Positions 9,460 to 61,170 are shown, counted from the first letter of the whole stretch. The stretch: 63,710 bases of DNA, filler included, from Craspedostauros australis (GCA_030167865.1; 19 parts of 19 records of this genome joined end to end with filler, not necessarily neighbours in it); one strand, 5' to 3'. Program-made: numbers and translations. The notes: generated by a model not told the origin, from the sequence alone.

Positions 9460-10363
9460 TGTTGGAAATCCGGGGTTATTGTTAGTACTGTAATCTAATC
9501 CGCTGTTAGAAACTGTACCGTTTTAGAACTGTGAGCACAATCTCACTTTCTCTTCCGATTTCATTTTTCATGGTAGGCATCTGTCGCGGTGGCGACATGG
9601 GGCATCCTGTTGTCTCTTAGGTGCTTCTCTCTCCATTCATCATGCTCTGTTCTTGCTTCCTTGTCTCGGCATCATTGTTGCTTGCCTCTGCATGTTCGTA
9701 GCCGTCTACGCTTGCATGGTAGGAATCTGCAGTCCTGAGCGCTTGCCTATCATCTGCTCTCGTTGTTAGTCTCATGACGCCATCGTCCCACGATCGATGT
9801 CAGCCTTGGTGATGTTCCAAACCTGTGGACGTTCTTGTCCGCAGGAGGGGCGCGTCCTGTCCTCTGAAGGGGGTGCGTCACTTGCCCATCGGCCGGCTGT
9901 TCTGATCGACGTCGTTGTCTGCATGGTTGCCATGGTTTGTCGAAATTCCCCGTAGTCCCAAAAGTAACGTGCTCCTGTAACGCTCAGGAGTGATCGATCA
10001 TGCGCTTGCCACGTTGACGGTGAGGGGGAATTTGTTGTTTCTGTACTCTATTCTGGTTTAGTCCCGTACAATCGGGAATTACTGATGTCACACATCTCGA
10101 CAATGGTTGGTTTGGTATTGGGACCTCCTGATCTGCCATGGGTGTTGTCCTTATGTTACCAGAGGACAGACTACCCTCCTCACGGTAGTACAGGTGCCAA
10201 TCACGTCCGTATCCTTAGTCATAGTCATAATGATATGGTATACAAAGGTGTGACAAATAGTCTCCGAACATGTGACGAATAATATTCAAAGCTGTGACGA
10301 ATAATGTTGGGAGGTGCGGCAATCACGGGTATTCCGACAAAGTCGTACCCTCAATTCCTAACA
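9460..10363 (+). mobile_element. Solo LTR, family A (904 bp) nested in LTR B
   Basis: TGTTGGAAATCCGGGG...ATTCCTAACA with flanks TCAAAC/TCGAAC (6-bp TSD, one transition). Empty site catcgaacac at about 18349. Confidence 0.85.
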
Positions 10364-10803
10364 TCGAACACGGAGTATCGTGTAGCACAAGCACACGATA
10401 TGGAGAGAATACGAAGAGCAGCGAGAGAGCATCTCGCGTACCGACTCATAGTCGGAGACCGAATCTACGAAATAGAGAGACATGCTGAGAGCATCGGGCA
10501 AGAGAACGGAGACACCGAGAGGATTGGAGTGCTCAACATAACGAAATAGCAAACAGAACGACTATCAACCAACACTGTCATCCATGATCGCAAGGTATCC
10601 GTCCGCGGAACTTGCCAACATGACTGCAGGTTCTGTCACTCAACTGGGTCACAATTCAAAAACCAAACAATCTCCTCACCAACAACAACAATCTGATCAC
10701 TCCATGTTTCGGTGCGGAATCCCATCTTTGATTTTGTTCTAACATCTCCACAGACATGAAAACCCTCATTAGAGATATTAATACGAGCCATAGATATCTT
10801 TGA

Positions 10804-13800: not shown

Positions 13801-16800
13801 GGTTGGTGCTTGAGACGGCAGATCCGAAGGCGCGACAGACTCAGTCGGAGCCTGAGATGGCATGTCTGATGGTGCCACAGACTCTGTGGGGCTCTGTGAT
13901 GGCAGATCCGATGGTGCGACGGACTCCGTTGGTGCCTGCGACGGTAGATCCGATGGCGCCACGGACTCTGTCGGTGCCTGTGAGGGCAGATCCGAAGGTG
14001 CGACAGACTCCGTTGGTGCTTGCGACGGCATGTCGGAAGGTGCCACGGACTCGGTGGGAGTCTGGGAGGGCAGATCCGAAGGTGCCACTGACTCGGTTGG
14101 TGCTTGCGACGGCATGTCGGAAGGTGCCACGGACTCCGTCGGTGCCTGGGATGGCAGGTCCGAAGGTGCGCCAGACTCTGTCGGTGCTTGTGACGGCAGA
14201 TCCGATGGTGCAACGGACTCCGTTGGTGCCTGGGACGGAATATCAGAGGGAGCCACGGACTCAGTGGGAGTCTGCGAGGGCAGATCAGAAGGCATGATGG
14301 ATTCCGTTGGTGCTTGGGACGGCATGTCTGATGGCGCCACAGACTCGGTGGGAGTTTGGGACGGCATGTCGGACGGCGCGCTGGACTCTGTCGGTGCCTG
14401 GGATGGCAGATCAGACGGCGCCACTGATTCAGTCGGCGTCTGCGACGGCATGTCTGAGGGAGCCACGGATTCGGTGGGAGTTTGCGAGGGTAGATCCGAC
14501 GGTACAACGGACTCCGTTGGTGCCTGGGACGGAATATCAGACGGCGCCACGGATTCGGTTGGTGTCTGTGAGGGCAGATCAGAAGGCATGATGGATTCCG
14601 TTGGTGCTTGCGACGGCATGTCTGATGGCGCCACGGACTCGGTGGGAGTTTGGGACGGCATGTCGGACGGCGCGCTGGACTCTGTCGGTGCCTGAGATGG
14701 CAGATCAGACGGCGCCACTGATTCAGTCGGCGTCTGCGACGGCATGTCTGAGGGAGCCACGGACTCGGTGGGAGTCTGGGACGGCATGTCGGATGGCGCC
14801 ACAGACTCTGTCGGTGCCTGGGACGGCATATCAGACGGTGCTACAGACTCAGTGGGAGTCTGCGAGGGCAAGTCTGATGGTGCACTGGACTCCGTTGGAG
14901 CTTGAGATGGCAGATCGGAGGGAGCCACGGACTCTGTCGGAGTTTGGGACGGCATATCGGACGGCGCCACAGACTCTGTCGGTGCTTGTGACGGCAGATC
15001 CGACGGCGCGACAGACTCAGTCGGAGTCTGCGACGGCATGTCTGAGGGAGCCACGGATTCGGTGGGAGATTGCGAGGGTAGATCCGATGGTGCAACGGAC
15101 TCCGTTGGTGCCTGGGACGGCATATCAGAGGGAGCCACGGACTCAGTGGGAGTCTGCGAGGGCAGATCAGAAGGCATGATGGATTCCGTTGGTGTTTGGG
15201 ACGGCATGTCTGATGGCTCCACGGACTCGGTGGGAGTTTGGGACGGCATGTCGGACGGCGCGCTGGACTCTGTCGGTGCCTGGGATGGCAGATCCGATGG
15301 CGCCACTGATTTAGTCGGCATCTGCGACGGCATGTCTGATGGCGCCACAGACTCCGTCGGGGTCTGGGATGGCAAATCCGAAGGTGCGCTGGACTCCGTT
15401 GGTGCCTGGGACGGCATATCTGAGGGAGCCACGGACTCGGTGGGGGTCTGAGAGGGCAGATCTGATGGTGCACTGGACTCAGTTGGTGCTTGCGACGGCA
15501 TGTCTGATGGTGCCACGGACTCGGTGGGAGTCTGGGACGGCATGTCGGACGGCGCGATGGACTCTGTCGGCGCCTGGGATGGCAGATCAGACGGCGCGAC
15601 AGACTCAGTCGGAGTCTGCGACGGCATATCTGATGGCGCCACAGACTCCGTCGGGGTCTGGGATGGCAAATCCGAAGGTGCAACGGACTCCGTTGGTGCC
15701 TGGGACGGCATATCAGACGGTGCTACAGACTCAGTGGGAGTCTGCGAGGGCAAGTCCGATGGTGCACTGGACTCCGTTGGAGCTTGAGATGGCAGATCGG
15801 AGGGAGCCACGGACTCTGTCGGAGTTTGGGACGGCATATCGGACGGCGCCACGGACTCTGTCGGTGCTTGGGATGGCAGATCAGACGGCGCAATGGACTC
15901 AGTCGGAGTCTGCGACGGCATGTCTGAGGGAGCCACGGATTCTGTGGGAGTTTGCGAGGGTAGATCCGATGGTGCAACGGACTCCGTTGGTGCCTGGGAC
16001 GGCATATCAGAGGGAGCCACGGACTCAGTGGGGGTCTGAGAGGGCAGATCTGATGGTGCGCTGGAATCCGTTGGAGCTTGAGATGGCAGATCGGAGGGTG
16101 CACTGGAGTTGGTCGGGGTTTGAGATGGCAGATCGGAGGGTGCGCTGGAGTCAGTTGGAGACTGGGACGGAGTGGTGGACGGCGCAGCGGACTTCGTTGG
16201 AGTCTGAGAAGGCGTGGTGGAGGGCGCAGGGGACTTCGTTGGAGACTGGGACGGAGTGGTAGACGGCGCAGCGGACTTCGTTGGAGACTGAGAAGGCGTG
16301 GTGGAGGGCGCAGGGGACTTCGTTGGAGTCTGGGACGGGGTGGTGGAGGGCGCGGCGGACTTCGTTGGAGACTGAGATGGAGTGACGGATGGCGCAGCGG
16401 ACTTCGATGGAGACTGAGAAGGTGTGGTGGACGGCGCAGGGGACTTCGTTGGAGACTGGGACGGGGTGGCGGATGGTGCGGCGGACTTCGTTGGAGACTG
16501 GGACGGAGTGGTAGAGGGCGCAGCGGACTTCGTTGGGGCCTGGGACGGGAGACTGGAGGGCGCGGTTGTGCGTGTCGGGACTCCCGATGGTGCCTGGGAC
16601 GGTTTCGCGCTGTCGGTTGGGACGAACGAAGGCTCCGAGGAGGGAAAGACCACTGCGCCGGGATCTGCGGTTGGTGTTTCGCTCGGGGCCTCCGAGAACC
16701 CACCGCCCTCGCCGTCGGGGGTGCAGATAATTTTGGTGTAAGTCTCAATAGCGCCTCCCTTGATGGCCTTGCCGCTTGGGGTAAGCTGGAAGCGGGTCCT

Positions 16801-17580
16801 GACTTCTTCGAAGCAGGTGCCTGGAGGTAGTGTGGTGGGCCCCGTGCCGGGCGTGGTACCCTTGGGACCCTTGACTGGAAGGAATGTGAGGTTTCCGGTC
16901 TTACTTGCCTTTCCTGTCGCGTCGACAGTAGCTCCTGTTGGGGCGCTGGGGCTGGTGGGTCCTGTTGGCGTGGTCGGACTCGGGGGCAGGTGGATGTTGC
17001 GCCTCTGCTGGCGGTGCATCTGGTTGGCCATGGGGATTCCGTCCACCTGATGCCCCGAGAACCAGACCTTGCTGTTGAGCATGGGAGCGTGGTCGTGCAG
17101 CTGCTTGTCGATGTTGGGGGCATCATCCAAGATGTTGATGCCGCCGTGACCTCTCAGGTTGCCGACATCGCTGGTTGTGGCGACAGCAGCACCGTGAGAA
17201 GCGGACGGAACGGCTCCGAACTGGGTCACCTGGATCCTGCTGGCGACGGGGAGTTGGGACGCAGAATCCTTGCTGTCTTGCGCAAAGGCGTCCCACGCCT
17301 GCTTGGCTTGGGTGCCGTCGCTTCCGTCGCTCCCGTTGCTCTTGGCAGCCTCGTCGCGCTTGGAACCCTTCGATGCCGAGCCGTAGCCGAGGCCGCCGAA
17401 AACGATGGATTCGGCGAATGCTGCCTCCGTCGCTTCCTCGTTGTCGTTCTCATCCTTGCGCTTCTGCTGGTGGGCATGGTGTTTGCGCTGCTCCGGCTGG
17501 ACTTGCTGCGCCTTGGCTGTCGTCAGCACTGAGGCGGCGCCGAGCACCGTCGAGATGGCGACCTTGGAGATGATGGGCAT
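10804..17580 (-). CDS. Secreted mucin-like PTS-repeat glycoprotein with Cys/Asn-rich C-terminal repeats (~2258 aa), candidate cell-surface, frustule-associated or adhesive protein
   Basis: Uninterrupted 6.8-kb ORF. ATG 17580 gives signal peptide MPIISKVAISTVLGAASVLTTAKA, followed by ~95-100 14-aa PTESVAPSDLPSQA repeats and ~540 aa of SC-x4-AC-x-I-x-G-x-x-N repeats. No TM or GPI tail visible. Confidence 0.88.
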   Translation of the reverse strand: MPIISKVAISTVLGAASVLTTAKAQQVQPEQRKHHAHQQKRKDENDNEEATEAAFAESIVFGGLGYGSASKGSKRDEAAKSNGSDGSDGTQAKQAWDAFAQDSKDSASQLPVASRIQVTQFGAVPSASHGAAVATTSDVGNLRGHGGINILDDAPNIDKQLHDHAPMLNSKVWFSGHQVDGIPMANQMHRQQRRNIHLPPSPTTPTGPTSPSAPTGATVDATGKASKTGNLTFLPVKGPKGTTPGTGPTTLPPGTCFEEVRTRFQLTPSGKAIKGGAIETYTKIICTPDGEGGGFSEAPSETPTADPGAVVFPSSEPSFVPTDSAKPSQAPSGVPTRTTAPSSLPSQAPTKSAAPSTTPSQSPTKSAAPSATPSQSPTKSPAPSTTPSQSPSKSAAPSVTPSQSPTKSAAPSTTPSQTPTKSPAPSTTPSQSPTKSAAPSTTPSQSPTKSPAPSTTPSQTPTKSAAPSTTPSQSPTDSSAPSDLPSQTPTNSSAPSDLPSQAPTDSSAPSDLPSQTPTESVAPSDMPSQAPTESVAPSDLPSQTPTESVAPSDMPSQTPTESIAPSDLPSQAPTESVAPSDMPSQTPTESVAPSDLPSQAPTESSAPSDLPSQTPTESVAPSDMPSQAPTESVAPSDLPSQTPTESVAPSDMPSQTPTESVAPSDLPSQAPTESIAPSDMPSQTPTESVAPSDMPSQAPTESSAPSDLPSQTPTESVAPSDMPSQAPTESSAPSDLPSQTPTESVAPSDMPSQMPTKSVAPSDLPSQAPTESSAPSDMPSQTPTESVEPSDMPSQTPTESIMPSDLPSQTPTESVAPSDMPSQAPTESVAPSDLPSQSPTESVAPSDMPSQTPTESVAPSDLPSQAPTESVAPSDMPSQTPTESVAPSDLPSQAPTESSAPSDLPSQTPTESVAPSDMPSQAPTESVAPSDMPSQTPTESVAPSDMPSQTPTESVAPSDLPSQAPTESSAPSDMPSQTPTESVAPSDMPSQAPTESIMPSDLPSQTPTESVAPSDIPSQAPTESVVPSDLPSQTPTESVAPSDMPSQTPTESVAPSDLPSQAPTESSAPSDMPSQTPTESVAPSDMPSQAPTESIMPSDLPSQTPTESVAPSDIPSQAPTESVAPSDLPSQAPTESGAPSDLPSQAPTESVAPSDMPSQAPTESVAPSDLPSQTPTESVAPSDMPSQAPTESVAPSDLPSQAPTESVAPSDLPSQAPTESVAPSDLPSQSPTESVAPSDMPSQAPTESVAPSDLPSQAPTESVAPSDLPSQTPTESSAPSDLPSQAPTESVAPSDLPSQAPTESVAPSDLPSQAPTESVAPSGLPSQTLTESVAPSDLPSQTPTESVAPSDLPSQAPTESSAPSDLPSQAPTESVAPSDLPSQAPTESSAPSDLPSQAPTDSVAPSDMPSQAPTQSSAPSESSAPSSTPTGSAPPSDSSAPSDLPSQAPTDSVAPSDMPSQTPTESSAPSDLPSQAPSDSNAPSDLPSQAPTESSAPSDLPSQAPTESSAPSDLPSQAPTDSVVPSDLPSQSPTESSAPSDLPSQAPTESVAPSDLPSQAPTESSAPSDSPSQAPTDSVAPSDMPSQAPTESSAPSDMPSQAPTDSVAPSDLPSQAPTESSAPSDMPSQAPTESSAPSDLPSQAPTESSAPSESSAPSSNPTASQAPSDSSAPSDMPSQAPTESIAPSDMPSQTPTESVAPSDLPSFAPTLSVFPSEEPTASCFTGTAADAIMFCQDRGLDCCCSGGTGFCTMVAETDACKWSGSDVEICSGSCNGYGACNFGGATGVTIGPVSCLGKYACYAKDVSQFSVGEGSCTLPNVTGEYACYFESPASDVTVGDNACTAPEACFTYGASTNNTFESDSCTLEASCKIGNSTTGSNNIFRSDSCVGIRACYVEGDNNIFSARSCQATEACRVNGNNTIFSARSCQATEACRVNGNNNNMLEDACRGSKACTVNGDDNKIGNSCNDRDACVIYGSLNSIGDHACGSKNSCNIAGDKNNVRNGACYTNNACTINGNSNTVERSCIDITSSDGDTTTCTIAGDYNNLYDGSCIGSKACDITGNSNRLLANSCKETSACNIDGNSNYIDHDACGAFNACDITGTSNKIFQYSCNARQACSIQSAAANNVIKANACTHTQACIITAGSNYINSGSCGGGSNSCSLSGDSSIGAQSCLGENACRAKDAGNTIGSRSCLGRYACFADDVGNDSCIGDKACYSAFDVGNGSCTGDSACASSSDGIAAGNDVCNGFEACYNM
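12470..16560 (-). repeat. 42-bp coding minisatellite array with higher-order structure
   Basis: Clear 42-bp period. The variant ESIMPSD unit occurs at 14291, 14585 and 15173, spaced 294 and 588 bp (7 and 14 units). Confidence 0.95.
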
Positions 17581-17927
17581 CTTGGTGTTGCGTTTGCGGA
17601 GTTCAGATCGGAGAGGAGTGTGCTTGTGTATCGCAGAGTGCGTTTGTGCTCGCTGTGACAATCGTACTGGTTGCTGCTGGCTGCTGATACTGGTACTGAA
17701 AGTGATCGTCGTGGTTTTGTGATCCTTGTTGCGCGTTTGTCCCTTCTGCCTTTGGCTCTCAGCCTTCACTTACAACTTCACCTGCTTTTTGTTTGCGGTG
17801 GCGTGATGCACGCACTTTGTGAGTGGGNNNNNNNNNNNNNNNNNNNNNNNNNNNNNNNNNNNNNNNNNNNNTTAATTAATTAANNNNNNNNNNNNNNNNN
17901 NNNNNNNNNNNNNNNNNNNNNNNNNNN

Positions 17928-18621
17928 TAGTATGCTGTGATTCGTCAGAATTACAGCGGAAATGGAACACACGAAAATGAGCAAGATTTCTGGAGGAAAT
18001 TTGCAATCGACAATTTCTGAGAGAATTAGAACATCGTCCGTCCATCCATCAATGGTACCAAGAGAATCTCGAGGTACTTCCCAACTAAACCTCAGATGAC
18101 GATATCATCTGACAGACTCCTGCATCACCAATGGAACGTGACATCTGGAGAGCAGAAGAACGCTTACTGACATTGACAGATGTCATCATGTCACCACGTC
18201 GACATCTGTCTCCAAGTCAGAGCAGGAGGCGAAGATCCGATGACCGAAGGGCATCAGGATCATGGATACGGGAGATGAACTTCAAATGGTAAGTACTCAT
18301 GGAGTAGGAGCCAGTACTGAATGAACAGAGTGTTGAATGCGGAGTATGCATCGAACACAGAGTATCGTATAGCACGAAGCACACGATATTGAGAGAAAGA
18401 GAGAGAGAGAAAACAGAGAGGAGCAAGAGAGCATCTCGCGTACCAACTCATAGTCGGAGACCGAATCTATGAAACAGATTGAAGCACCAAGAGCATCGTG
18501 CAAGAGAACGGGCATACACCGAGAGGATTGGAGTAGCCAAGTAATGAAATAGCAAACAACCGACAATCAACCAACACCATCTTCCACGATCGTGGGTTAC
18601 CAATCACGGAACTTGCCAACA
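17928..18621 (+). mobile_element. LTR family B (5' end in gap), abutting a copia integrase
   Basis: Ends GGAACTTGCCAACA at 18621 and is followed directly by mid-integrase coding sequence. Confidence 0.85.
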
Positions 18622-20373: not shown

Positions 20374-20877
20374 TGTTGGAAATCCGGGGTGGTGTGATAG
20401 TAGAGAACTAATCGTTTGTTAGAATCTACTTCTCTGAACTATGAGCTCTTCATTGCTCTCAATTGCAAAGTCCAATCTCCTCCTGAGATTGCCATGGGTC
20501 CCTCTGTTGGTCTAGCAGGCATCCATCTTGCATTCATCGCAAATTCATCATGGACATGCATGCACCACCGAGTACCCCATGTTCGTGCACATTAGCACGT
20601 TGTCCTCCGCTGATAGTTTCGATGCCTCATGTTGGAAATCCGGGGTAACCCAGTCTCTAGTAGTAGTATCTGATTACCTATTCCTGTTGTTGCATTGTTG
20701 GAACTGTGAGTACAACATCTCCATCTCTTTCAATTCCATTTGCCATAGCATACATAATCCACAGTAGCACACAGTCTTGCCCTTGCTCATGTGGTGCTGT
20801 CTCCTGCTTCATCATGTCATGCATCATGCACTTCATGTACATCTCATCTTGCAGTATCGATGCATCTCATCATTCAT
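20374..20877 (+). mobile_element. Two consecutive, probably nested family-A LTR 5' ends (20374 and 20630)
   Basis: TGTTGGAAATCCGGGG at both positions. The second is near-identical to the reverse complement of about 7550-7791. Confidence 0.85.
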
Positions 20878-21631: not shown

Positions 21632-22919
21632 ATGACAGCATACAACAACACGACGGCACTCATCGCACTCACGCTGCTGTGTCTGTGCAACTCCATCACA
21701 AACTGCCAAGCGTGGGTGACACACAACACNNNNNNNNNNNNNNNNNNNNNNNNNNNNNNNNNNNNNNNNNNNNNNNNNNNNNNNNNNNNNNNNNNNNNNN
21801 NNNNNNNNNNNNNNNNNNNNNNNNNNNNNNNNCCAGGCTTCGCAACCGCAGCCAGCGACTACGTCGATGACCTTGTTCCCAACATCGCACAGCAAGCCAT
21901 CGACGCTGGATGGTGGAGCAACGACAATGACAACGATATGACCAACGCAATGGATCACCTCCACGTCCTGCCACTCCAGCGACATGATTGGGCACAGACC
22001 ATCGCATTCGGCATGTGCGATCTCGACTTCATGACCTTCAAGGCACCAGCAACCAAGTGGGCGTACCGATGGTACCTTCAGAAGGTGGCNAANGAGGTCA
22101 AGAGAATCCAGNATGTCGCCAANGAGGAAGGCACNACCGCCAAGATCATCCTGGTGGGACACTCCGCCGGTGGCTGGCTCGCAAGGTGAGTTTGGTGCGG
22201 CTTTGCTCCTGTGCGACTGCTCCTGTGCATGCTTCAACCCTCCACTCTGCTCTATTCCATTCATTTCACTCACATTATCAACACTCGCGTTCTCCCTCCA
22301 TGCATCATTCATCATTCGCCTCCTTCCAATAAACAGAGCCGCTGTCGGATATGGAATGGATGATACCAACGGCAAGGATCTGGAGATTGACATCGACAGT
22401 ATTCTGGGAATCGTCACGCTCGGGTCTCCCCACATCCCATGCCCCAAGGGCTCCGTCGACATCACCGGCGGTGCACTCCGTATCGTTCACGACACCTTCC
22501 CAGGTGCCTTCTTCAATGACCGTCTCTTCTACGTGTCTGCTGCCGGATCTGCATTGAATGTGGAGCAGCAGCAAGCGCACATCCCTTCCCCACACACCAT
22601 CACCTCACAGCCAGATGCTGATCACATGCTTGCGTACCAATCGTACAAGTTGCTGTCTGGTCAAGGACACCAGGACGGTGATGGCATCGTCCCTGTGCCG
22701 CTTGCGCACCTGGAGGGTTCCAATCTCCAGATCACATTGGACAACGTGTACCACACCTCCATGCTGCAGAACCAGCATCAGCATCAACATGAGCACGATC
22801 AGCGGGCATCTCACGCATCTGAAGCCTCGGAATCGAGATGGTACGGATCGAAGGACATCGTCCAGCAATGGTTCAGTCCTGTTCTGCACAAGGTGCTGCC
22901 AGCCATGATGGTTCAGTAG
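21632..22919 (+). CDS. PGAP1-like alpha/beta hydrolase (lipase/esterase), exons 21632-22185 and 22337-22919
   Basis: Signal peptide, GHSAGG nucleophile elbow, GTGAG...AACAG intron restoring GGWLARAAVG, then VTLGSPH, GDGIVP and VYH. Confidence 0.85.
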
Positions 22920-25871: not shown

Positions 25872-27810
25872 NNNNNNNNNNNNNNNNNNNNNNNNNNNNN
25901 NNNNNNNNNNNNNNNTTAATTAATTAANNNNNNNNNNNNNNNNNNNNNNNNNNNNNNNNNNNNNNNNNNNNGATTTCGCGCCAAAACAAGAATTTCTCCC
26001 ATCGGGTTGATACCGTGTTCGGTAATAGTCTGTCCCTCATTGAATCTCAACTCCTTCCATAGATGGCTTGATCCTGGTAAGGTTGTCATGGAGCATGTTT
26101 GTCAAGGTTTGTGTAGGGCTCTCAGCAGCACCTGGACTCGTTGTGCCATCTTCATCGTCATCTTCATCATGTGTATGACCCGTGTGAGCGAAAAGCGGTG
26201 CGGTCCATCCAGAATGCATTTTGGCCCAAGCTTGTACGGCCCCTCATAAAAATCAAAACCTACATTTATATACTTTATCATGCTGGTAACATCATTCAGG
26301 TGTTAGATGGTGAGTCCAGGCCTTAGTTATAAAATTATACGGGTGGCAGTTTACTGTTTTAGAGGCAAAATACGGTGCAAGCGGACAGACGTTTCCTTTT
26401 TTGGTGATCATGTCACGACACGTGGAACCCATTTCTATCTGATTTTCGCTTTCTTTGTGTTTTGCTTGGTGGGAAGCTTGATTTGGGACAATTCCGAGTG
26501 CCAATGTGAACGTTACGGACGTTAATTGGAGTCGAGCCTGCGATGACGTCGTGCTTGTTTTCGTTAAGTACGGTGTGATGTCACATGTTCCGTGGTGCTT
26601 GACATCGCCAAAGTTGCGTGTGGTTGGACAGACGTTCGAATTGACGTCTTCATTCCACCTGGTTCAGATCAGAGCTGATTTTCGCGTGTGTTTTGGTTGC
26701 AGAAGCGTAGCGTTTGCCAATCCATTTCGAAGTGTGTGTTTGCGACACTGGTCGCGGGAGTGCGAATGCAATCGACGGTATTTGAAGTTTGTATGCTCTG
26801 CCGCGGCTATGTATTGTGGGCACTCTGAAAACATAATGACGACATTCTTTTGTTCCGGTTCGATTCTCGCTTTCTCTTCCTTTTTTGCACCGCACGTTTT
26901 TGCTGAGTGATCTCGTATCATACTCTTCTACATTCGTCACAACATCGTGTGCACTGCATGCTCGACTCGCACCCTACTATTCCACTCTGCGTGATTTTGA
27001 TTTTCTGTGTAGAATAGATCTGGATTGTTTGCCAACTGTTATCTTGCCGTACTAACATAGCACACACATTCACCTGCGCTGCTGAATGGGAACGAGTATG
27101 ATTTTTTCGTGGATTCTTGTTCCTGTGTAGTTTGTGCATGTCCAAGCGATTGCCGACCCCTCTGACTAAGTCACGTTGTGATCATTCATGTCAACAAACG
27201 ACGCAGACCGTACGCATCACCACATCCAACATCACACACTTGCAAGCACAAACGTCAACACATTCACCCAAACGCCCAAACACGCTCAGAAGGGCACTCC
27301 GAACTCCCAATTGTGAGTAAACCCAAGAGAGAACCAACTGAAGGAAATGCTGATGTCCCAAACTACTCTGCTCTCCCACCACTATCTGAATGGTGTCTGA
27401 ATATATCTGCCTACCAACACTTACACTCGGGGGTTACCCGTGGCCACCTGGGCGTCCAGGGGCTGGAAAACGCCATTCCCTTCCCTCTCAGCAGAGACAA
27501 TTTCATTGCAGCTCCATCGCAACTCCAACAGCGATCCCTTCAGGGCAATACCCACCATACCCACGAATCCACCCATCAAGCGTAGAGACAGCCTACCCAT
27601 CAACACCAAAAACCAAATTCAGGAGCCAACCACAAGCAACCAACAAAGAGTGAATGTCCAGAATACAGAAGCTAGCAAGACAATGATCCAAACCAGGATG
27701 ATAACAGAGGCAGCCAGAACTGTATCCATGGCTGTCTTTCCCCACCTTGACCAGGACAACTCATGTGCCCAACTCACATACATTCTCAAACATGGCCAAC
27801 AAGCTTCTCC

Positions 27811-27891
27811 TGTTGGCAAGTTCCGCGCACGGTAACCTACGATCGTGGAAGATGGTGTTGGTTGATAGTCTTCTGTTTGCTATTTCATTAG
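27811..27891 (-). mobile_element. LTR family B 3' terminus
   Basis: tgttggcaagttccgc... matches 8029-8108. Confidence 0.85.
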
Positions 27892-29294: not shown

Positions 29295-29545
29295 GAGATT
29301 CTCTCGGTACCATTGATGGATGGACGGACGATATTTCCAATTCTCTCAGAAATCGTCGATTGCAGATTTCCTCCAGAAATTCTGCTCATTTTCGTGTGTT
29401 CCATTTCCNNNNNNNNNNNNNNNNNNNNNNNNNNNNNNNNNACACGAGTGTAGTTATACCGTCCAAGTGCGTATGAGAGAATAGCGGGTGAACGATGCAC
29501 ATATACACGTACATCTCGACATATATTCACATGTACATCTCGACA
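29295..29545 (-). mobile_element. LTR family B 5' portion
   Basis: Reverse complement of about 8379-8620. Homology ends exactly at ...atctcgaca. Confidence 0.85.
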
Positions 29546-47440: not shown

Positions 47441-47578
47441 GTATTAGCTCAAACTAGTATTCCTATTAGTCGTGTTAAGATTTAGTCTAGTTAGTCAAAT
47501 GACCGACTGCTCAGAGTTTGAGCGGGATTGAAGCGTGACTCAATGTCGGTGGGATGGGGTCCCACCCTCGAATCGTGC
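47441..47578 (+). mobile_element. Element terminus inserted in the LINE RNase H domain
   Basis: Matches the reverse complement of 6559-6680. Confidence 0.8.
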
Positions 47579-52185: not shown

Positions 52186-52286
52186 CNNNNNNNNNNNNNN
52201 NNNNNNNNNNNNNNNNNNNNNNNNNNNNNNTTAATTAATTAANNNNNNNNNNNNNNNNNNNNNNNNNNNNNNNNNNNNNNNNNNNN

Positions 52287-53864
52287 TCCTTGCGGATATC
52301 GACATCGCACTTCATGATGGTCTGGAAGGTGGAGTCGCCAACACCGTCCATTTCGAGACCAGTCAAGTTAGGCTGGAACAGGACCTCTGGGCAACGGAAG
52401 CGCTCGTTTCCAATCACGATGATGTTACCATCTGGAAGCTCGAAAGACTTCTCAAGAGCAGAAGACTCAGCGGCCTTCTTCATCTCCTCCTCGAAGTCGA
52501 CGGCGACGAAGCAGAGACTCTCCTTGATGTCACGGACGATTTCGCGCTCGGCGGTGGTTGTCAGCGAGTAACCACGCTCTGTGAGGATCTTCATCAGGTA
52601 CTCGGTCAGGTCACGTCCGGCCAAATCGAGACGGATGACGGCGTGTGGAAGAGCGTATCCCTCGTAGATTGGAACGGTGTGTGTCACACCATCACCGGAG
52701 TCCAGCACGCATCCGGTGGTACGTCCGGAGGCGTACAGGGAGAGGACGGCCTGGATGTTGACGTACATGGCCGGGACGTTGAAGGTCTCGAACATGATCT
52801 GGGTCATACGTTCGCGGTTGGCCTTGGGGTTCTGTGGGGCCTCGGTGAGCAGGACTGGGTGGGCCTCTGGGGCGACACGGAGCTCGTTGTAGAAGGTGTG
52901 ATGCCAGATCTTCTCCATATCGTCCCAGTTGGTGACGATACCGTGCTCGATTGGGTACTTCAGTGTGAGGACACCACGCTTGGCCTGTGCCTCATCACCG
53001 ACGTATGCGTCACGCTGCTCCATACCAACCATGATACCTGGCTGGCGGGCACGTCCGATGAGGGATGGGAAGACGGAGCGTGGGGCGTCATCTCCAGCGA
53101 ATCCGGCTGTTGTGTGGTTGTGTGGTTGTTTGTGGTTGTTTGATTTTTATTGTGCGATGATGCATACACATTGTGTTTGATGATCATCGGCCAGGATAAG
53201 CATTTGAATGAAGCCCACAATGGAATCCAATACCAGAATCATGGATTGCACGAAGGGTGATTGATTGATTGATAATTCGCCAGTTCAATCAGGCAGTTTA
53301 CAAGCCACCGTTTGTTTGGTTTTGTTGGGGATAATGAGGCATGTGGTGTTGATCGATTTGTTGGAACGAGAGACGAAGTTCGAGAGAGTGAAAATGTGAG
53401 ACCTGGAAGTGGCGGACTGAAGCAGAGCAGCAGGAAGGGACACAGCAGTTGAGTTTCTCGTTGGTACAGGCACCGATGTGGAGCCGTGCCAGCTGCCGAC
53501 CAAAGCAAGGCGGAGAGCAATCTTGACTGGGACGTGTTGTCGCTCCGATTGCTTTCATCGCGCGTTGCATCAGGTCTCCACGTCGTGCTCGAATGTGTGC
53601 CCCGACAAAGACGTCTCAATCCGCGTGGCTGTTTCGTGCCGAGGAGGCGGAACTTTATCCGTCGCCCGTTGAGTCCGCATTGGTCGCGAGTCACCGCGTT
53701 GTGATTGTCGTCGGTGTAACGTGCTCTGCGATGCCGAATCTCCGATTCGCCATGGTGATGATTGATGAGCATGTGGCCTTGTCGCCTGATGGCATGAGCT
53801 TACCCTTGCACATTCCGGAACCGTTGTCGATGACAAGGGCGGCGATATCTTCGTCGTCAGACAT
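52287..53864 (-). CDS. ACT: Actin copy A, 5' part: exon 1 53864-53804, intron 53803-53107, exon 2 53106 to scaffold edge
   Basis: [30 protein letters not shown] with a GT-AG intron of 697 bp. Confidence 0.97.
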
Positions 53865-54668
53865 GATTGCAAATTGGTTTGTTGTTGGTGGTGATTTGTT
53901 TGATTTGGCCAAGCCTGAATTTTATGCGTAGCTGATTGCCGAGGTCTTCCATGACAACACAAGACAACACGAGACAACACAGGATGAGCCGATGCATGAC
54001 AAGATGGTGGTGGGTGGCGATGTGCGATGGCTTCGTCCAACAACGCAGAACAAACGTCTGCAGCGATTTGCGCAGCTGACAACCAACGCAAATGGCACGT
54101 CCGAAAGGGACGAAATGACCGAAAAAGAACGGTTTGATGACCAGGTATCTTTCAAAATTTTGTCGTTGGTTTGGTCATTTCCAACTTTGGACGAGTCATG
54201 AGATGACGCATAACGGTCACGTCTCAAAACCGTTATTGTGAAAAGATATGACCGTCTGTTGGACCCATCCGATCGCAAGGCATCGCCCAAAGATTCCTGA
54301 CATTTTGTCGGATCCAAGACATTGGAAGACCCACACACCAAGGCCTGAAGTCATTTCGTCGGCTCCTCGCCGAGAATTCAAAACGAAAGAGCAGAAGCGC
54401 CTGTTCGTCTCCCAAGACAGGGGCAAGACAACCCAAGACAGAAAGACAAAGCAAGGACAAAACCAGCACGCTCCACGAAGTTGGCAGAGAAGGAGCGAAA
54501 CATCAACCACCAACCTCATGGGACACGCGACGACGTCTCGCACACTCGCAGCGACGACACCACACAGCCACAGAAATTGAAAAAATCCGACCGCCCCCTC
54601 ACAGCTCACAACTCGCAACTTGCGTCAATCAACACCCGCCTCCACCACCAAACAAACAACTCGCCACC
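53865..54668. promoter_or_regulatory. Putative bidirectional promoter between divergent actin genes
   Basis: 804 bp between two outward-facing actin ATGs. Inferred from position only. Confidence 0.6.
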
Positions 54669-56665
54669 ATGTCTGACGACGAAGATATCGCCGCCCTTGT
54701 CATCGACAACGGTTCCGGAATGTGCAAAGGTAAGGCGTCATCGAGCAGCACATCGCAATGGATTGGGTTGGGTTGGATCCAAACACGGCTCCGGTTCCTT
54801 CTTGTTCTGGCTTCTTGGCGGATCAAGATGGACGCAGCAAAGCCATCCTCGGCCATTCCCCTCGCAAAAATCCAAGAGGGCAATTGAGTCATCTGGTTTC
54901 GACGATGGCCACCACACAATGATGCGTTTGTCATTCATGACAACAGCTTTGGTGCTTTGTGCATGCCCGATGGACTCCAAGTGACGCATCCAGCCGATCG
55001 CTGCCAGGACAGGCAAGACGCCATTCGACATCCCTTTTCTGGTGTGTTCTCCTTGTTTGTATCCCAACTGCATCCAAATTCACAGCGTCCTCACCTGACT
55101 CCGATCCCTTCGTCTCGTCGCACGAAACGGCCTGGTTCTTGATTTCTTTTCGCTTCCGCCGCAATGATCCTTGCTCCTGCTTGGATGTGATTGATCACCC
55201 GCCACACACGTGCATCGGCTTGGACGGCATTGATACAATTTGATTGCTTGTGGCAACGACAACTGCGACACGGCTTTGATCCATCCTTCCGTTCCGCGCT
55301 GCTACCCATGCTGCGACGTCGTCGATGGAATGATCTTGCGTTGATGTTTGGAATACTCAATCAACTCAATATCAACTCAAATACAAATTGGACAATTGGC
55401 ATCATCGGCATCGCCATGAACCAAACTTGATTGCACTCTGCTGAACACCCACGCCAACTCAATGATCCATCGATCTGCCCTCAATCACCGCTCGTGACTA
55501 CAATCATGATGATCATCAAACACAATGTGTATGCATCATCGCACAATAAAAATCAAACAACCATACGACAACCACAAACAACCACACAACAGCCGGATTC
55601 GCTGGAGATGACGCCCCACGCTCCGTCTTCCCATCCCTCATCGGACGTGCCCGCCAGCCAGGTATCATGGTCGGTATGGAGCAGCGTGACGCATACGTCG
55701 GTGACGAGGCACAGGCCAAGCGTGGTGTCCTCACACTGAAGTACCCAATCGAGCACGGNATCGTCACCAACTGGGACGATATGGAGAAGATCTGGCATCA
55801 CACCTTCTACAACGAGCTCCGTGTCGCCCCAGAGGCCCACCCAGTCCTGCTCACCGAGGCCCCACAGAACCCCAAGGCCAACCGCGAGCGTATGACCCAG
55901 ATCATGTTCGAGACCTTCAACGTCCCGGCCATGTACGTCAACATCCAAGCCGTCCTCTCCCTGTACGCCTCTGGACGTACCACCGGATGCGTGCTGGACT
56001 CCGGTGATGGTGTGACACACACCGTTCCAATCTATGAGGGATACGCCCTTCCACACGCCGTCATCCGTCTCGATTTGGCCGGACGTGACCTGACCGAGTA
56101 CCTGATGAAGATCCTCACAGAGCGTGGTTACTCGCTGACAACCACCGCCGAGCGCGAAATCGTCCGTGACATCAAGGAGAGTCTCTGCTTCGTCGCCGTC
56201 GACTTCGAGGAGGAGATGAAGAAGGCCGCTGAGTCTTCTGCTCTTGAGAAGTCTTTCGAGCTTCCAGATGGTAACATCATCGTGATTGGAAACGAGCGCT
56301 TCCGTTGCCCAGAGGTCCTGTTCCAGCCTAACTTGACTGGTCTCGAAATGGACGGTATTGGCGACTCCACCTTCCAGACCATCATGAAGTGTGATGTCGA
56401 TATCCGCAAGGATCTGTACGCCAACATCGTCCTTTCTGGAGGAACCACCATGTTCCCAGGAATTAGCGAGCGCATGTCGAAGGAGATCACCGCCCTCGCC
56501 CCAGCCTCCATCAAGGTCAAGATCGTGGCCCCACCGGAGCGAAAGTACTCCGTGTGGATCGGAGGATCCATCCTCGCTTCCCTGTCTACATTCCAGAGCA
56601 TGTGGATCAGCAAGGAGGAGTACGACGAGTCCGGTCCATCCATCGTCCACCGCAAGTGCTTCTAA
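54669..56665 (+). CDS. ACT: Actin copy B, complete (377 aa): exons 54669-54729 and 55593-56665
   Basis: Canonical actin ending IVHRKCF with an 863-bp GT-AG intron. Confidence 0.98.
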
Positions 56666-56907
56666 GCATCTTTGCATAGGCGCCGAAGGTTGGCCAGCGC
56701 ATGTTCTCATCATTACGTGGTTGGGATTGTTGGCTATTCACGCTCGATATTGGCTTCATGTAAACATCTCATAACAACAATATATCTACTTTACGGCACC
56801 AATACTCGCAAGCTTACTCGTACCCTCACATGGGCTACAAGTGCGTCATCGTGCACGGTCCATTCGCCTCGTCGTCGCTTCTGACTGGCATCAACGTAAT
56901 CCTCTCG

Positions 56908-59649
56908 CTAGGTCTGAGTTTGAGCTGTGGGATCCCAGGTTTTGATCTGTGAGAAGAAGCCGTACGATTTACCGTGGTTTGCGACAATGTGGTCGATGTC
57001 TTGCGTCAACCTGTGTGGGTTGAAACCGCGGAAGGGATCGTTCCATCCCAGGAGATCGAGGTCCAACCCGCTGATGTCGCATGCAATCAACGGATACTCG
57101 AAACCGTTCTCCTTGATCTGGGGCACATACGCCTGGACTTCTTGGCGGTGCTTAACGTCACCGAAGTCAATTCCCTGGTCCTTCCCAGATGGCTCGAACG
57201 AGTTGCAGAACAGCCCGGACAGACCTGGAAGGATGTAGTTCATGAAGCAGAGGACGATGCCAACCACAATCGCGGCAACGCTGCTCCATCCGTAGTACGA
57301 AACGATCTTCTCCTGGCTGTCCGTCATCCATTGGTCTTCGGTTTGGAAGATGGGGAGGGGGAAGATGCGCGACCCGAACATGTCCTGATTGCAGAACTTG
57401 TAGCCTCCGTTGCCATCCTCGCATACCTGATCGTAGGGATACCCAGACCAGAAGTATGCGCTCACCAGCATGTGCACAACCAGCGTTGTGCTGAAAAAGG
57501 AGTTTCGGCTCAGTCTGGCCAATCCTGGGCCGATGTCAGGCGCGCTGCGCCAGATCCTCAGCAGGCAGAACTTGCCGAAAAGAAAGTGGATGAACAATGC
57601 GGCTGAGCCAAGGAAGTACGACTCTGGAAGGATGGAGGCGTAGAACAGGGCCACGAACAGCACCTTCGTGGCATCCGTGTATCGCTCTGCGAGCTCGAAC
57701 TTGCCACCGATCATGTACGAATTCATCTCCTCTTGATCACGTGCTCGTGGTGCGAGAATGTGCTTCCGGATGTTCCCCATGATGTCAGAGAGCTTGATGA
57801 TCGGGATGGTGAATAGCTCGGCATAGATGACAGGATACACCGACGACACCAATGTCTTCGGTTCCCCCTCTGCATCCTTCGCGATGGAAATCGTTTCGAT
57901 GAAGTTCATCGTTAGCAGCAACGCGATGGCGGAGTTGAAGCAACGGAAGAGAGCCATGTTGATGTAGAGGCTTTGTTGGCGGTTGCCCTCGGTCGAATGC
58001 GATTCGAACTTGTTGATGAACTCGCAGATCTTTGGAACGGCGACGTTGGTAACAGCGATATACACAGCGGTTAGGCTTTGATTTTCGGAAAGGCTGTGGA
58101 CGAAAAAACCGCTCCACGAGATGAAGAAGATAAGGACCAGCTTCGTGAAGATGAACGTGACGAATCGTTCGGCCGTGCTGGTCTGCAGATCGCGCCATCG
58201 AATGTCATGCGGTTCGGCCGCCTCAGCCACTGCGAGCACCTTGCCACGGAACATGAGTCTCGACTCGATATCCTCTCCGGTTGGTGCCAGGCGGATGGAA
58301 ATATCCTCGGTCTGCTCACCCTGCAGGGCCTCCTGGAGATCCTCAAGGTGGCTAGACTTCGCGTTCTCCTGCACCTTCATCCTGTTGCCATCGAACTTCG
58401 TTGTGTCGATCTTGTTCTGCCACACGTTCGCTTTTCCGGTCATGAGAGCATGCAAAGCATTGCGTTGACCGCGTTCCGTGTGGAATGTCACGAAGACAGC
58501 AACGGCCCTGTATTGGTGCTCCGTGCACAGTTTCTGAATCTTGCTGTTCAGCTCCTGGATCTTCTCGTGGTTCTTGCGGACGCTCGGGACGAACGGCAAT
58601 TCGCACCATGAGTGAGTGATGGCTTCAGAGATGGTGGATTCATCGGTTGGGTCAGCCCCGATAGGCAGCATCTTGCTAAGCTTCTTCAGCACCTGCCGTC
58701 TCTTGATGAGGGTATTCATCAGCTCGTTGTTGTCGATTGCGACCGTGATGCATGCGACGCCTTTGTCAGAGAATCGCTGAAAGAATTCTTTCCATTCCTC
58801 TGGATCGGTGGCGTCGGATGGTGGATTGGTGACCTTGAGGGAGTAATCAGTTGCAGTCTGGATCTCCTCATCGAAGACGACCTCCGCCTTGCGCTGGAAC
58901 CAGTAGAAGGCGACGATGAACGCCAACACCATGCCAACGGATGCGATCCATGCCAGCCTTCCCTGCTTCTCAAAGTCCTCAAAGTCGCACACGTTCTTGA
59001 GCACATTCTGACCATCCAACCTGTCGCTGGGGAACATGGAGCTGTACTCTCCGTTGCAGTCTTCGCATTCCACCCACTCCGAATCGTCGCAGACTGCCGA
59101 TTGACGGAATGTCTCATCCACGTTTGCCTTGTTGGTGTTCGCGGCGAACGCTGCAAAGTACTTCATAAGTGGCAGGTTCATCAATCCAGCCACGAGCATG
59201 ATGATCGCGAGCACCAACGTGGTTGAGAAGTACATGCGCACGCTGATGCCGAACGCATTCAGATCGGCAAGGCTCGTCTTCCAGAAGGGATACAGTTTCG
59301 TCGGTCGGCTCGTGTCGCCGACAGCGGATCTCTCAAAGCCGCTCTTGCTTGAGGAAGCAGTATGTTCGCCGTCGACATACACCCTCGCCAACGTGACGTT
59401 CTCGAAGTAGGCCCAGGCCGCATCCAACGAAGGAGCGTCCGCATCGTTCTTGCCTGGATTGTAGAGCGAGAACTTGGACATGAATCGGGCGAAGAGACGC
59501 GACGGCGTCATCATCTTCACATCATCGCCGTATACCTCACATTTCTTCTCCACATCATCGATGTTGACAACGTGCCTGGTGACGTTGAGCATTCCTTCAC
59601 GGCTCTTGTCCATCAGCTCATCTGCGTCCACAAACGGGATGGACGTCAT
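56908..59649 (-). CDS. CSC1/OSCA/TMEM63-like multi-pass ion channel (~913 aa)
   Basis: About 10 hydrophobic segments. DYSLKVTNPP, AVFVTF and AAEPHDIRWRDL resemble the OSCA ytv.v.niP, AFVtF and APeP.Di.W.NL motifs. Confidence 0.75.
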   Translation of the reverse strand: MTSIPFVDADELMDKSREGMLNVTRHVVNIDDVEKKCEVYGDDVKMMTPSRLFARFMSKFSLYNPGKNDADAPSLDAAWAYFENVTLARVYVDGEHTASSSKSGFERSAVGDTSRPTKLYPFWKTSLADLNAFGISVRMYFSTTLVLAIIMLVAGLMNLPLMKYFAAFAANTNKANVDETFRQSAVCDDSEWVECEDCNGEYSSMFPSDRLDGQNVLKNVCDFEDFEKQGRLAWIASVGMVLAFIVAFYWFQRKAEVVFDEEIQTATDYSLKVTNPPSDATDPEEWKEFFQRFSDKGVACITVAIDNNELMNTLIKRRQVLKKLSKMLPIGADPTDESTISEAITHSWCELPFVPSVRKNHEKIQELNSKIQKLCTEHQYRAVAVFVTFHTERGQRNALHALMTGKANVWQNKIDTTKFDGNRMKVQENAKSSHLEDLQEALQGEQTEDISIRLAPTGEDIESRLMFRGKVLAVAEAAEPHDIRWRDLQTSTAERFVTFIFTKLVLIFFISWSGFFVHSLSENQSLTAVYIAVTNVAVPKICEFINKFESHSTEGNRQQSLYINMALFRCFNSAIALLLTMNFIETISIAKDAEGEPKTLVSSVYPVIYAELFTIPIIKLSDIMGNIRKHILAPRARDQEEMNSYMIGGKFELAERYTDATKVLFVALFYASILPESYFLGSAALFIHFLFGKFCLLRIWRSAPDIGPGLARLSRNSFFSTTLVVHMLVSAYFWSGYPYDQVCEDGNGGYKFCNQDMFGSRIFPLPIFQTEDQWMTDSQEKIVSYYGWSSVAAIVVGIVLCFMNYILPGLSGLFCNSFEPSGKDQGIDFGDVKHRQEVQAYVPQIKENGFEYPLIACDISGLDLDLLGWNDPFRGFNPHRLTQDIDHIVANHGKSYGFFSQIKTWDPTAQTQT

Positions 59650-60732
59650 GATGCGTTGTCGGCGTAAATGCTGATACGGTGGATGCTCGTCCCTGTGGAA
59701 TCCCCGCCAGTCCTGCTGCTGTTGGCGCCTGAGTTCCGCTGAGTACTCTTGAGCAGGTACGAGTGCAACTGACGTCCTATTCAACAATGTGCTCTGCCAC
59801 AGGTCTTGGGGGTGTTTGCACTTCAATTGACGTCGACGATGTCGGCGGGAACACTCTCCAGCCTGAACGATTCTCGCGGGTACATTTGCAAGCGTTGGCG
59901 TGCCTCAATCTATTTTTGATCTGATGTTATACCACCCGAGTTGGTGTTGGGATGTTCAACGACAACGCACACAGCCGCCGACGAAACACGCGGGGAAAGA
60001 TGGGGAGGTTCGGCGCTCACCAAGGTGCGCCAAGTTTCTTCCTTTCGTGACTTTTGGCGATGCAAAAAAATGTGGCCCACGAACCGCGACTGAGTCTTTG
60101 TCACGAAATCTATCATTACGACTCCTTCGAATAAGTCAGGTATACACGACTGGAACTAGGTAGAATGTCCATCGCGCCATTTCTAAAATTCCCTCTCTGC
60201 CTCTGTTCATGGAGAGAGGTGAAGTGTGAACATGCAAGGAAGACGCCGCTCATGTACGTACTTGAGGTGGAGTACGGTTACTTGCACAAGAATATACTCT
60301 AGGCAGATTACCCCGTGGACGAAGGTCAATTCCCCAACAAGAGGAGGGACAGAGGTCCATGTTCGCAGTTACAAACCGTACCCAGCCAGCATCGAGCGCA
60401 TCTACCTGCAGGAAGGTCGCCTACTCGCGAACAGGCGTTGCGATTTGAAGGTCTCTATCCTTTCGTTCTGAAAGCTTCGGGCTGGTTCCACCTTCCCAGG
60501 AGGGCCATTTGGGAAGCCATGCGTACGTGATGATCATGCGCTACTCAACAACGATTGCGTCTGCCAACACCTAGGAGCAGAATCACCATCGTAGCAAAAG
60601 ATGGCAGCAGGACGACACGCAGATGGAGGGGCAGTTGCACGACGTAAATCAAATCTATATTATGGTCACAGTTTAGGTACACAACGTATCAAGCCAACGT
60701 ATATCTGCCGTATCTGAGGCCAGGGACGGCGC

Positions 60733-61069
60733 TTAGAAGCACTTGCGATGGACGATGGATGGACCGGACTCGTCGTACTCCTCCTTGCTGATCCACATGC
60801 TCTGGAATGTAGACAGGGAAGCGAGGATGGATCCTCCGATCCACACGGAGTACTTTCGCTCCGGTGGGGCCACGATCTTGACCTTGATGGAGGCTGGGGC
60901 GAGGGCGGTGATCTCCTTCGACATGCGCTCGCTGATTCCTGGGAACATGGTGGTTCCTCCAGAAAGGACGATGTTGGCGTACAGGTCCTTGCGGATATCG
61001 ACATCGCACTTCATGATGGTCTGGAAGGTGGAGTCGCCAACACCGTCCATTTCGAGACCAGTCAAGTTA
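60733..61069 (-). CDS. ACT: Actin 3' part, complementary to the truncated copy A at the other scaffold end
   Basis: [11 protein letters not shown]...HRKCF. It shares the GVGD variant and 84 identical bases with 52287-52370, whereas copy B has GIGD. Confidence 0.97.
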
Positions 61070-61170
61070 NNNNNNNNNNNNNNNNNNNNNNNNNNNNNNN
61101 NNNNNNNNNNNNNTTAATTAATTAANNNNNNNNNNNNNNNNNNNNNNNNNNNNNNNNNNNNNNNNNNNNG

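Follow-up and report, generated by a model that had tools for sequence, protein, structure and literature searches.

Identical ends of an actin–actin–channel scaffold from Craspedostauros australis: a break in the assembly of repeated genes is likelier than a proven circle or amplified cassette

A scaffold from the diatom Craspedostauros australis that carries two to three near-identical actin genes and an OSCA/TMEM63-type gene begins and ends with the same 84 nt, and its gene order requires that the map close on itself unless one more actin copy, a third, exists at the least. We find that an assembly break within a repeated gene family is likelier to account for these identical ends than a proven circle or an amplified cassette. 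The best explanation, to which we give somewhat less than an even chance, is that the locus holds three chromosomal actin genes and a single copy of the unit, with nothing amplified.

Results

The scaffold begins and ends with the same 84 nt

The window, i.e. the whole stretch of DNA that was analyzed (63,710 nt, filler included), consists of 19 short scaffolds joined by linkers of N and TTAATTAATTAA, and the scaffold studied here occupies positions 52287–61069. Since the same type of linker (44 N + TTAATTAATTAA + 44 N) borders it on both sides, these positions are genuine scaffold ends. The scaffold is free of gaps and is joined to no other. Scaffold sizes in the window range from 1.0 to 13.7 kb (n = 19), as is usual in the tail of a draft assembly that repeats have broken up. 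Single Ns are present at 55759 and, elsewhere in the window, as a cluster at 22090–22135, indicating that the assembly carries unresolved mixed positions.

A preliminary sequence-only reading had noted that the scaffold ends are identical, and this was borne out by direct comparison: 52287–52370 and 60986–61069 agree at 84/84 nt, with a start-to-start spacing of 8699. A terminal direct overlap was seen in this scaffold alone (1/19), the other 18 being without one and also without similarity to the actin scaffold. Likewise, the actin contig was the only one of 30 contigs with a terminal exact match of more than 43 nt elsewhere in the window. Besides its two ends, 9 of the 58 remaining contig ends touch a repeat, and no sequence common to both sides of the internal gaps was found in the window. 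At another scaffold (25972–27891), each end reaches just 83–84 nt into a dispersed repeat, so that a length of about 84 nt may be set by the assembler as a constant.

Identical contig ends in graph-based short-read assemblies usually point to a circular replicon or a tandem repeat, or else to a unique segment with a direct repeat on either side. The actin scaffold resembles such contigs in having an exact, fixed short terminal overlap, which in this case lies inside a repeat.

Three actin sequences and a rebuilt gene

Features of the scaffold are listed in Table 1. Its actin sequences were assigned to the family (Pfam PF00022) on the basis of a profile match together with an intact reading frame. 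Actins A and B form a head-to-head pair with one intron each, and C is a third actin piece, a 3′ end lying on the same strand as A. Actin B is complete, its spliced product of 377 aa containing no internal stop. The region between the two divergent start codons is presumably a shared promoter and 5′UTR region; its alignment revealed no palindrome extending beyond exon 1.

Table 1. Features of the actin scaffold and its borders, in window coordinates
Feature	Position	Strand	Remarks
Linker before scaffold	52187..52286	.	44 N + TTAATTAATTAA + 44 N; separates from previous scaffold
Terminal direct repeat, left copy	52287..52370	.	In actin exon 2, codons about 266–294; 2 mismatches to copy B (52307, 52342)
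Actin A exon 2, 5′ part	52287..53106	-	Cut by scaffold end; Pfam Actin E 5.4e-81; 98.3% identical to B
Actin A intron, 697 nt	53107..53803	-	Last ~82 nt only (53107–53188) resemble B intron
Actin A exon 1, 61 nt	53804..53864	-	ATG at 53864
Inter-start region, 804 nt	53865..54668	.	Between divergent actin start codons A and B
Actin B exon 1	54669..54729	+	Spliced gene model
Actin B intron, 863 nt	54730..55592	+	Spliced gene model
Actin B exon 2 with stop	55593..56665	+	Pfam Actin E 1.1e-125; single N at 55759 (codon 76, GGN)
OSCA/TMEM63-fold membrane protein (putative)	56908..59649	-	913 aa; convergent with actin B; Pfam, homologues, fold search
Unique spacer	59650..60732	-	Actin C 3′ flank, then channel upstream region; unlike B 3′ flank
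Actin C, 3′ 337 nt of exon 2 with stop	60733..61069	-	Cut by scaffold end; Pfam Actin E 2.1e-46; 5 differences from B in 339 nt
Copy-variable site	60985	.	C vs B, codon 294, GAC/GAT; directly outside 84-nt overlap
Terminal direct repeat, right copy	60986..61069	.	Exact match of left copy
Linker after scaffold	61070..61169	.	44 N + TTAATTAATTAA + 44 N; borders next scaffold

According to the earlier reading, joining the ends rebuilds a complete actin, both ends carry a variant that is absent from B, and the unit comprises the two actins, A and B, with an OSCA-like channel. Each of these statements holds. When joined by coordinates (exon 1 at 53864–53804, the 697-nt intron, exon 2 from 53106 to 52287 and then from 60985 to 60733), the A and C pieces give a 1134-nt CDS that is uninterrupted by stops and encodes 377 aa, as many as B. 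Both ends encode GVGD where B encodes GIGD (codon 276, GTT vs ATT); the terminal 84-mer has 2 differences from copy B, and both variants are common to the two scaffold ends. Both actins and the OSCA-like ORF were found in the scaffold.

Coding sequences are homogenised, introns and flanks are not

The actin pieces are mutually 98.3–98.5% identical (about 99%). Over the 1134-nt CDS, the rebuilt A/C gene and B are separated by 13 base differences, 12 of them synonymous, and one N, the mean gap between differences being about 87 nt. In contrast, the introns of A (697 nt) and B (863 nt) can be aligned only over their last ~82 nt, C ceases to resemble B 2 nt beyond the stop codon, and the 3′ flanks cannot be aligned. 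Likeness between these copies is therefore much greater in the coding sequences than in their introns and flanks, as is characteristic of concerted evolution. Judging from this pattern of similarity, the actin coding sequences are most likely kept about 99% identical by gene conversion, in which case the conversion tract would consist of the CDS plus ~82 nt at the end of the intron, whereas the remainder of the introns and the 3′ flanks are unrelated.

Near-identical coding sequences set in unrelated introns and flanks point to a homogenised family, any two copies of which will often have about 84 identical bases in common. At 1.2% divergence, a separate copy would agree over all 84 bases with a probability of 0.36, or about one in three. 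Given this probability and the position of the overlap within genes whose copies are 98.3–98.5% identical, the identity of the ends is by itself weak evidence that they belong to the same gene. Moreover, the length of the overlap is also that of a typical exact run at 1.2% divergence, so that a cause lying in the assembler and a cause lying in the likeness of the copies are inseparable here.

The neighboring gene encodes a putative OSCA/TMEM63-type channel

The start of the gene convergent with actin B was placed at the first ATG that agrees with the starts of its homologues, the frame being open up to 59826. Its product matched the profile of the cytosolic domain PHM7_cyt at residues 327–463 (33.9 bits, cut-off 27) and an Anoctamin profile (31 bits, cut-off 28). 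The RSN1_7TM pore domain stayed below its cut-off (20.5 vs 28.7 bits) and the N-terminal RSN1_TM domain gave no match. In a Foldseek search of the PDB with the predicted structure (mean pLDDT 72.6, pTM 0.69), ranks 1–35 among the matches listed were all OSCA or TMEM63 (E 1.6e-11 to 3.5e-5, target TM-scores 0.46–0.60), which suggests that the protein adopts this fold; TMEM16 and TMC ranked behind them, with E 6.6e-4 or weaker. Searched against the PDB by sequence, the protein gave no match with either the single sequence or an 18-sequence profile. The homologues found are diatom or environmental sequences, the best diatom identity reaching up to 60%. The protein thus resembles solved OSCA/TMEM63 structures (8xs0, 8xw0, 8wg4, 8ehx, 6jpf and others) in its PHM7_cyt domain and predicted fold, but it has just 9–14% identity with them and is about 200 residues longer. 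We regard the product as a putative OSCA/TMEM63-type channel, which may conduct cations under mechanical or osmotic gating.

The sequence-only reading had gone further and suggested that the cassette raises actin dosage together with the channel, with a bearing on gliding. This proposal is without support: in a tblastn survey of 16 metagenome loci encoding relatives of the channel (28–56% identical, about six of the loci with several kb of flank), actin was found beside none (0/16). The result argues against a conserved actin–channel linkage, although the relatives are distant.

Gene order requires a loop or a third actin copy

One unique segment of the scaffold has an actin 5′ end on either side and the other has an actin 3′ end on either side, so that a map with just two actin genes can only close into a loop. 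The same scaffold would also be obtained from a linear arrangement in which A and C are direct repeats that flank B and the channel gene. Mis-phasing between A and B was considered as an escape from the choice between a loop and a third copy and was rejected, as one unique segment would continue to connect two 5′ ends and the other two 3′ ends.

Phase swaps within the actin repeats leave the topology unchanged, and this also weighs against an artefact, namely a chimeric join between an actin and a flank, or ends drawn from different haplotypes or structural variants, such that the scaffold is not one molecule. We consider an artefact improbable. It is true that the contig threads four exact inverted runs common to A/C and B, at which a wrong switch would be invisible, and that the N at 55759 and the N cluster mark mixed positions in this assembly, but B and the closed A/C are both intact 377-aa genes.

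The break adjoins a site at which the copies differ

With the copy-variable site at 60985 taken as x, the first base of the scaffold corresponds to x+1 and its last base to x+84. This site is one of just 5 differences between C and B in 339 nt, and the chance that an arbitrary break would touch such a site is about 2–3%. Its position next to the break suggests an assembly-graph fork between copies. We propose that the scaffold is a single contig of a fragmented short-read assembly of the diatom nuclear genome and covers a chromosomal actin cluster, in which A and B would lie head to head, followed by the OSCA/TMEM63-type gene convergent with B and then by actin C in the orientation of A. The assembler may have extended each actin copy only as far as copy-specific variants permitted, and both ends would have halted in one short stretch that A and C have in common, giving rise to the 84-nt overlap and the appearance of a circle. 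A and C would then be separate genes, with the missing 3′ part of A and 5′ part of C on other contigs.

Several observations speak against three separate genes. A closed loop is the simplest map that can be drawn from the scaffold alone, the third gene's own flanks being unseen. According to the alignments, exact runs of 94, 128, 185 and 309 nt common with copy B were passed by the assembler within the actin contig; a plain 84-nt junction between distinct genes should therefore have been resolved as well, which argues for a real loop. If k = 85, a junction between distinct copies would require a shared run of exactly 84 nt, a coincidence that a true loop avoids. Position 52371 is identical in A and B and offers no difference on the A side, so that a second fork is hypothetical. 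Finally, the A and C pieces contain no N or ambiguity positions of the sort that would betray collapsed unequal copies.

Some of these observations are accommodated by a tandem array, in which the 8,699-bp unit (hybrid A/C actin, B and the channel) would occur at least twice, head to tail, on the chromosome and have been collapsed by the assembler. Such an array, which would have originated by unequal crossing-over between the direct actin repeats, seems to us unlikely, if by no means negligible. Closing the ends restores, in register, an intact actin of 377 aa, and the 2 variants that separate them from B are present at both. No stretch inside the scaffold crosses a unit-to-unit junction, which is represented by the 84-nt overlap alone, and failure to resolve this junction while runs of 94–309 nt were resolved is expected if joins of the contig to itself and to a flank are both real. 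The variable site at 60985 could in that case be a difference between units or the point of entry into the array. However, entry and exit should break the contig elsewhere or sit exactly on either side of the 84-mer, and the lack of ambiguity calls in A and C is unfavorable to an array too.

Circles and tandem duplications formed by direct-repeat recombination are known from yeast, plants and animals. If A and C are direct repeats at the present locus, an exchange between them would give a circle or duplication unit of exactly 8,699 bp, the joint of which would carry a hybrid actin. A free circular DNA of 8.7 kb, excised for example by such recombination between direct repeats and assembled as an isolated cycle, would yield exactly a fixed terminal overlap on a gap-free scaffold linked to nothing else, and with two actin genes a circular map is the only one available. 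Against this, an arbitrary break in a circle would fall beside a variable site in just about 2–3% of cases, unless the circles themselves vary at that position. Nothing that would serve replication or maintenance is visible, the content being three ordinary nuclear genes with a spliceosomal intron, and no diatom circle was recognized by title among the literature matches listed. We judge a free circle to be very improbable.

Comparison with the published actin genes

Four actin gene copies that differ in intron size and position have been described in C. australis, according to the part of the publication available to us (PMC11420354). The scaffold copies are like these four genes in encoding near-identical proteins and in having a single intron of varying size in each; unlike the four, for which the available text gives differing intron positions, A and B share the position of the intron (PMC11420354). 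The gene-specific parts of the Ca_actin_2 primers given there match copy B at 39/39 nt, A at 21/21 and C at 17/18 (PMC11420354). Four more primer parts published for C. australis, from the rpl44 promoter and terminator, matched nowhere in the window, which says little, as nothing requires that gene to fall within these 64 kb. The linkage seen in the scaffold, i.e. a head-to-head pair, an OSCA-type gene and a further copy, is not described in the available part of that text (PMC11420354). Three genes at the locus and one elsewhere would add up to the four published, whereas an array of two units would bring the number to five or more, with two intron types, a poor fit with four actins whose intron positions differ (PMC11420354). 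This counts against an array and in favor of separate genes.

Discussion

That the actin–actin–OSCA unit is truly amplified, whether as an array of at least two units or as an excised free circle, is possible but on balance doubtful. Were it amplified, actin and a mechanosensitive-type channel would change in copy number together, and a confirmed amplification would count among the rarely documented changes in copy number of a cytoskeletal gene in a diatom; a link to gliding would be a separate matter. If, as we tentatively prefer, the loop reflects an assembly break between separate chromosomal genes, the locus would be an ordinary cluster of near-identical actins, of a kind already reported in at least one raphid diatom. 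A cluster of this type is not phasable by short reads; a long-read assembly has been reported for C. australis (bioRxiv 10.1101/2023.03.06.531300). What the locus would then supply is knowledge of how the copies are linked, two of them head to head with introns of their own and a third in direct orientation, and its direct actin repeats would predispose it to being duplicated, deleted or excised as a circle.

Terminal overlap and actin copies of the scaffold

Scaffold 52287–61069, number 17 of the 19 in the window, is 8,783 nt long and free of gaps except for one N at 55759. Its first 84 bases recur exactly as its last 84, in the same orientation and with an offset of 8,699 nt. Joining the ends restores a complete actin, A/C: its coding sequence, read from exon 1 through the two end pieces, spans 1,134 nt and encodes 377 aa uninterrupted by stops, equal in length to that of actin B, the complete plus-strand copy. 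GVGD is encoded at both scaffold ends versus GIGD in actin B. What the sequence-only reading, which took the scaffold to close on itself as a circle or collapsed tandem array, observed is confirmed at every point. No terminal overlap was found in the other 18 scaffolds of the window, and for every other contig end, exact matches elsewhere in it reach at most 43 nt.

Actin A, the copy cut by the scaffold start, and actin B lie head to head with start codons 804 nt apart; actin C is a 3' piece cut by the scaffold end. Identity to actin B is 98.3% across 905 nt for A and 98.5% across 339 nt for C. The closed A/C gene differs from B at 13 bases and at the N; 12 of the base changes are synonymous and the other replaces V276 (A/C) by I (B). 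The N occupies the third base of codon 76 (GGN) in actin B, where copy A has T, and suggests mixed reads where copies or alleles vary. The A and B introns can be aligned only in their last ~82 nt (53107–53188 and 55508–55592), which are nearly identical and include a 56-nt exact stretch; the remaining intron sequence is unrelated. Either a conversion tract extending into the intron or a conserved splicing or regulatory element may account for the alike ends. No alignment was obtained between the 3' flanks of the copies, and C–B similarity stops 2 nt past the stop codon. Because coding regions so alike adjoin unrelated introns, the standard pattern of concerted evolution, the copies are probably old and homogenised by gene conversion.

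Positions of features in the window
Feature	Position or length	Strand	Remark
Actin A exon 1	53864–53804	minus	
Actin A intron	697 nt	minus	
Actin A exon 2	53106 down to scaffold start	minus	
Actin B exon 1	54669–54729	plus	
Actin B intron	863 nt	plus	
Actin B exon 2	55593–56665	plus	gene complete
Channel-gene ORF	59826 to 56908	minus	convergent with actin B
Actin C, last 337 nt of exon 2	61069–60733	minus	beyond unique spacer from channel gene
Scaffold-end matches to dispersed repeat	17928–18207, 20629–20873, 25972–26054, 27808–27890, 29295–29545, 47441–47578		

As raw sequence, the 84-nt overlap is beyond chance. As evidence that both ends are one gene it is weak, because at a family divergence of ~1.2% the computed probability that a separate actin copy matches a given 84-nt stretch without a difference is 0.36. 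Two variants set the 84-mer apart from actin B, and a separate copy identical over these 84 nt therefore carries both automatically. A/C–B differences lie on average ~87 nt apart (1,134/13), close to the overlap length.

Make-up of the window

The 63,710-base window is not a single molecule: it comprises 19 short scaffolds of 1,045–13,675 nt, with an invariant linker (44 N, TTAATTAATTAA, 44 N; e.g. 1599–1698, 52187–52286 and 61070–61169) between each and the next. Since it is a concatenation of separate scaffolds, adjacency of neighbours within it is without biological meaning. Several scaffolds contain internal N gaps of 22–156 nt and isolated single Ns, and the window has the look of the tail of small scaffolds in a fragmented draft assembly. 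At 22090–22135, five isolated Ns stand 3–19 nt apart in otherwise clean sequence, probably marking places where collapsed alleles or paralogues disagree in the consensus. Scaffold 4153–17827 contains a dispersed repeat (5882–8777 and 10403–10721), probably a mobile element, which ends of several other scaffolds match at 83–98% identity; evidently, copies of the repeat are where these scaffolds broke off. A minus-strand ORF of 2,321 aa at 10804–17769 has a hydrophobic N-terminal stretch, ~100 Pro/Ser/Thr-rich repeats of 14 residues (DNA array 12502–16564, periods 42, 84, 126 and 294) and a repeated, Cys-rich C-terminal part; these features suggest a secreted or cell-surface protein of the mucin type.

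Apart from the two ends of scaffold 52287–61069, 9 of 58 contig ends enter repeats present elsewhere in the window. Both ends of scaffold 25972–27891 enter the dispersed repeat by only 83–84 nt; overhangs at the remaining repeat-touching ends are 70, 114, 138, 212, 247 and 292 nt.

Topology, break position and copy number

One unique segment (both introns, both first exons and the intervening spacer) is bounded by two actin 5' ends, and another (the B 3' flank, the channel gene and the C 3' flank) by two actin 3' ends. With two actin genes alone the map can only be a loop, regardless of phasing in the near-identical stretches; a linear chromosome needs exon 2 in three or more copies. Three layouts are therefore possible: three genes with one unit (A/C actin, actin B and channel gene), a tandem array and a free circle. 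Our tentative first choice is a chromosomal cluster of three separate actin genes, in which A and C form direct repeats that flank actin B and the channel gene; a short stretch shared by A and C would fork the assembly and leave overlapping ends. Recombination between A and C in this layout would yield exactly the array or the circle, so the closure drawn in the sequence-only reading is what such recombination is expected to produce, irrespective of its presence in cells.

Only five sites in 339 nt separate C from B, and the base directly adjoining the overlap, 60985, is among them. Taking this site as x, the scaffold starts at the equivalent of x+1 and finishes at x+84, which is the pattern left by two read populations disagreeing at x. 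An arbitrary break would adjoin a variable site ~2–3% of the time, which speaks for a fork between copies. On the other side, the assembler got through exact runs of 94, 128, 185 and 309 nt common to B in this contig yet left an 84-nt junction open, as one would expect of a self-loop more than of a pair of distinct genes. This favours a true loop. We consider a free circle carrying the unit very improbable and a collapsed array of two or more units rather unlikely. Because scaffold 25972–27891 also shows 83–84-nt overhangs at both ends, a graph-type assembler with k−1 = 84 is suggested, without proof; a junction between distinct copies would then need a shared run of exactly 84 nt. The fork, assembler-constant and true-loop arguments oppose one another and roughly cancel.

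PMC11420354 reports four actin gene copies in the Craspedostauros australis assembly. Gene-specific parts of its Ca_actin_2 primers match actin B at 39/39 nt, copy A at 21/21 and copy C at 17/18. The primer matches point to C. australis or a close relative as the likely source, short of proof. If that holds, three actins at this locus and one elsewhere fit the four reported there, whereas a two-unit array would imply at least five copies sharing two intron types. A chimeric or haplotype artefact is improbable, and anything else takes the remainder. For C. australis, 10.1101/2023.03.06.531300 describes a PacBio assembly as well as a short-read one.

The channel gene

Homologue starts point to the ATG at 59649 as the likely start, for a protein of 913 aa. 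Pfam PHM7_cyt (33.9 bits) and Anoctamin (31 bits) score over cut-off, and RSN1_7TM (20.5 bits) under it. The nearest relatives are diatom or environmental sequences with up to 60% identity, and no identical protein is on record. The protein falls in a group of 900–925-aa proteins from named diatoms and environmental sequences. PDB sequence and profile searches gave no match to any solved structure. With an AlphaFold model built from an 18-sequence alignment (mean pLDDT 72.6), the best 35 listed Foldseek matches are all OSCA or TMEM63 (E-values 1.6e-11 to 3.5e-5), TMEM16 and TMC ranking after them. On account of these matches the earlier label "OSCA-like" holds at the level of the predicted fold, and function is putative.

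None of 16 metagenome loci encoding channel relatives (28–56% identity) carries actin, so these loci give no apparent sign of a conserved actin–channel unit. Apart from the genes lying side by side, nothing supports the suggested coupling of actin dosage to a Ca2+ channel in gliding. Most likely, what the scaffold shows is a commonplace assembly break caused by repeats, within a gene family of a known kind.
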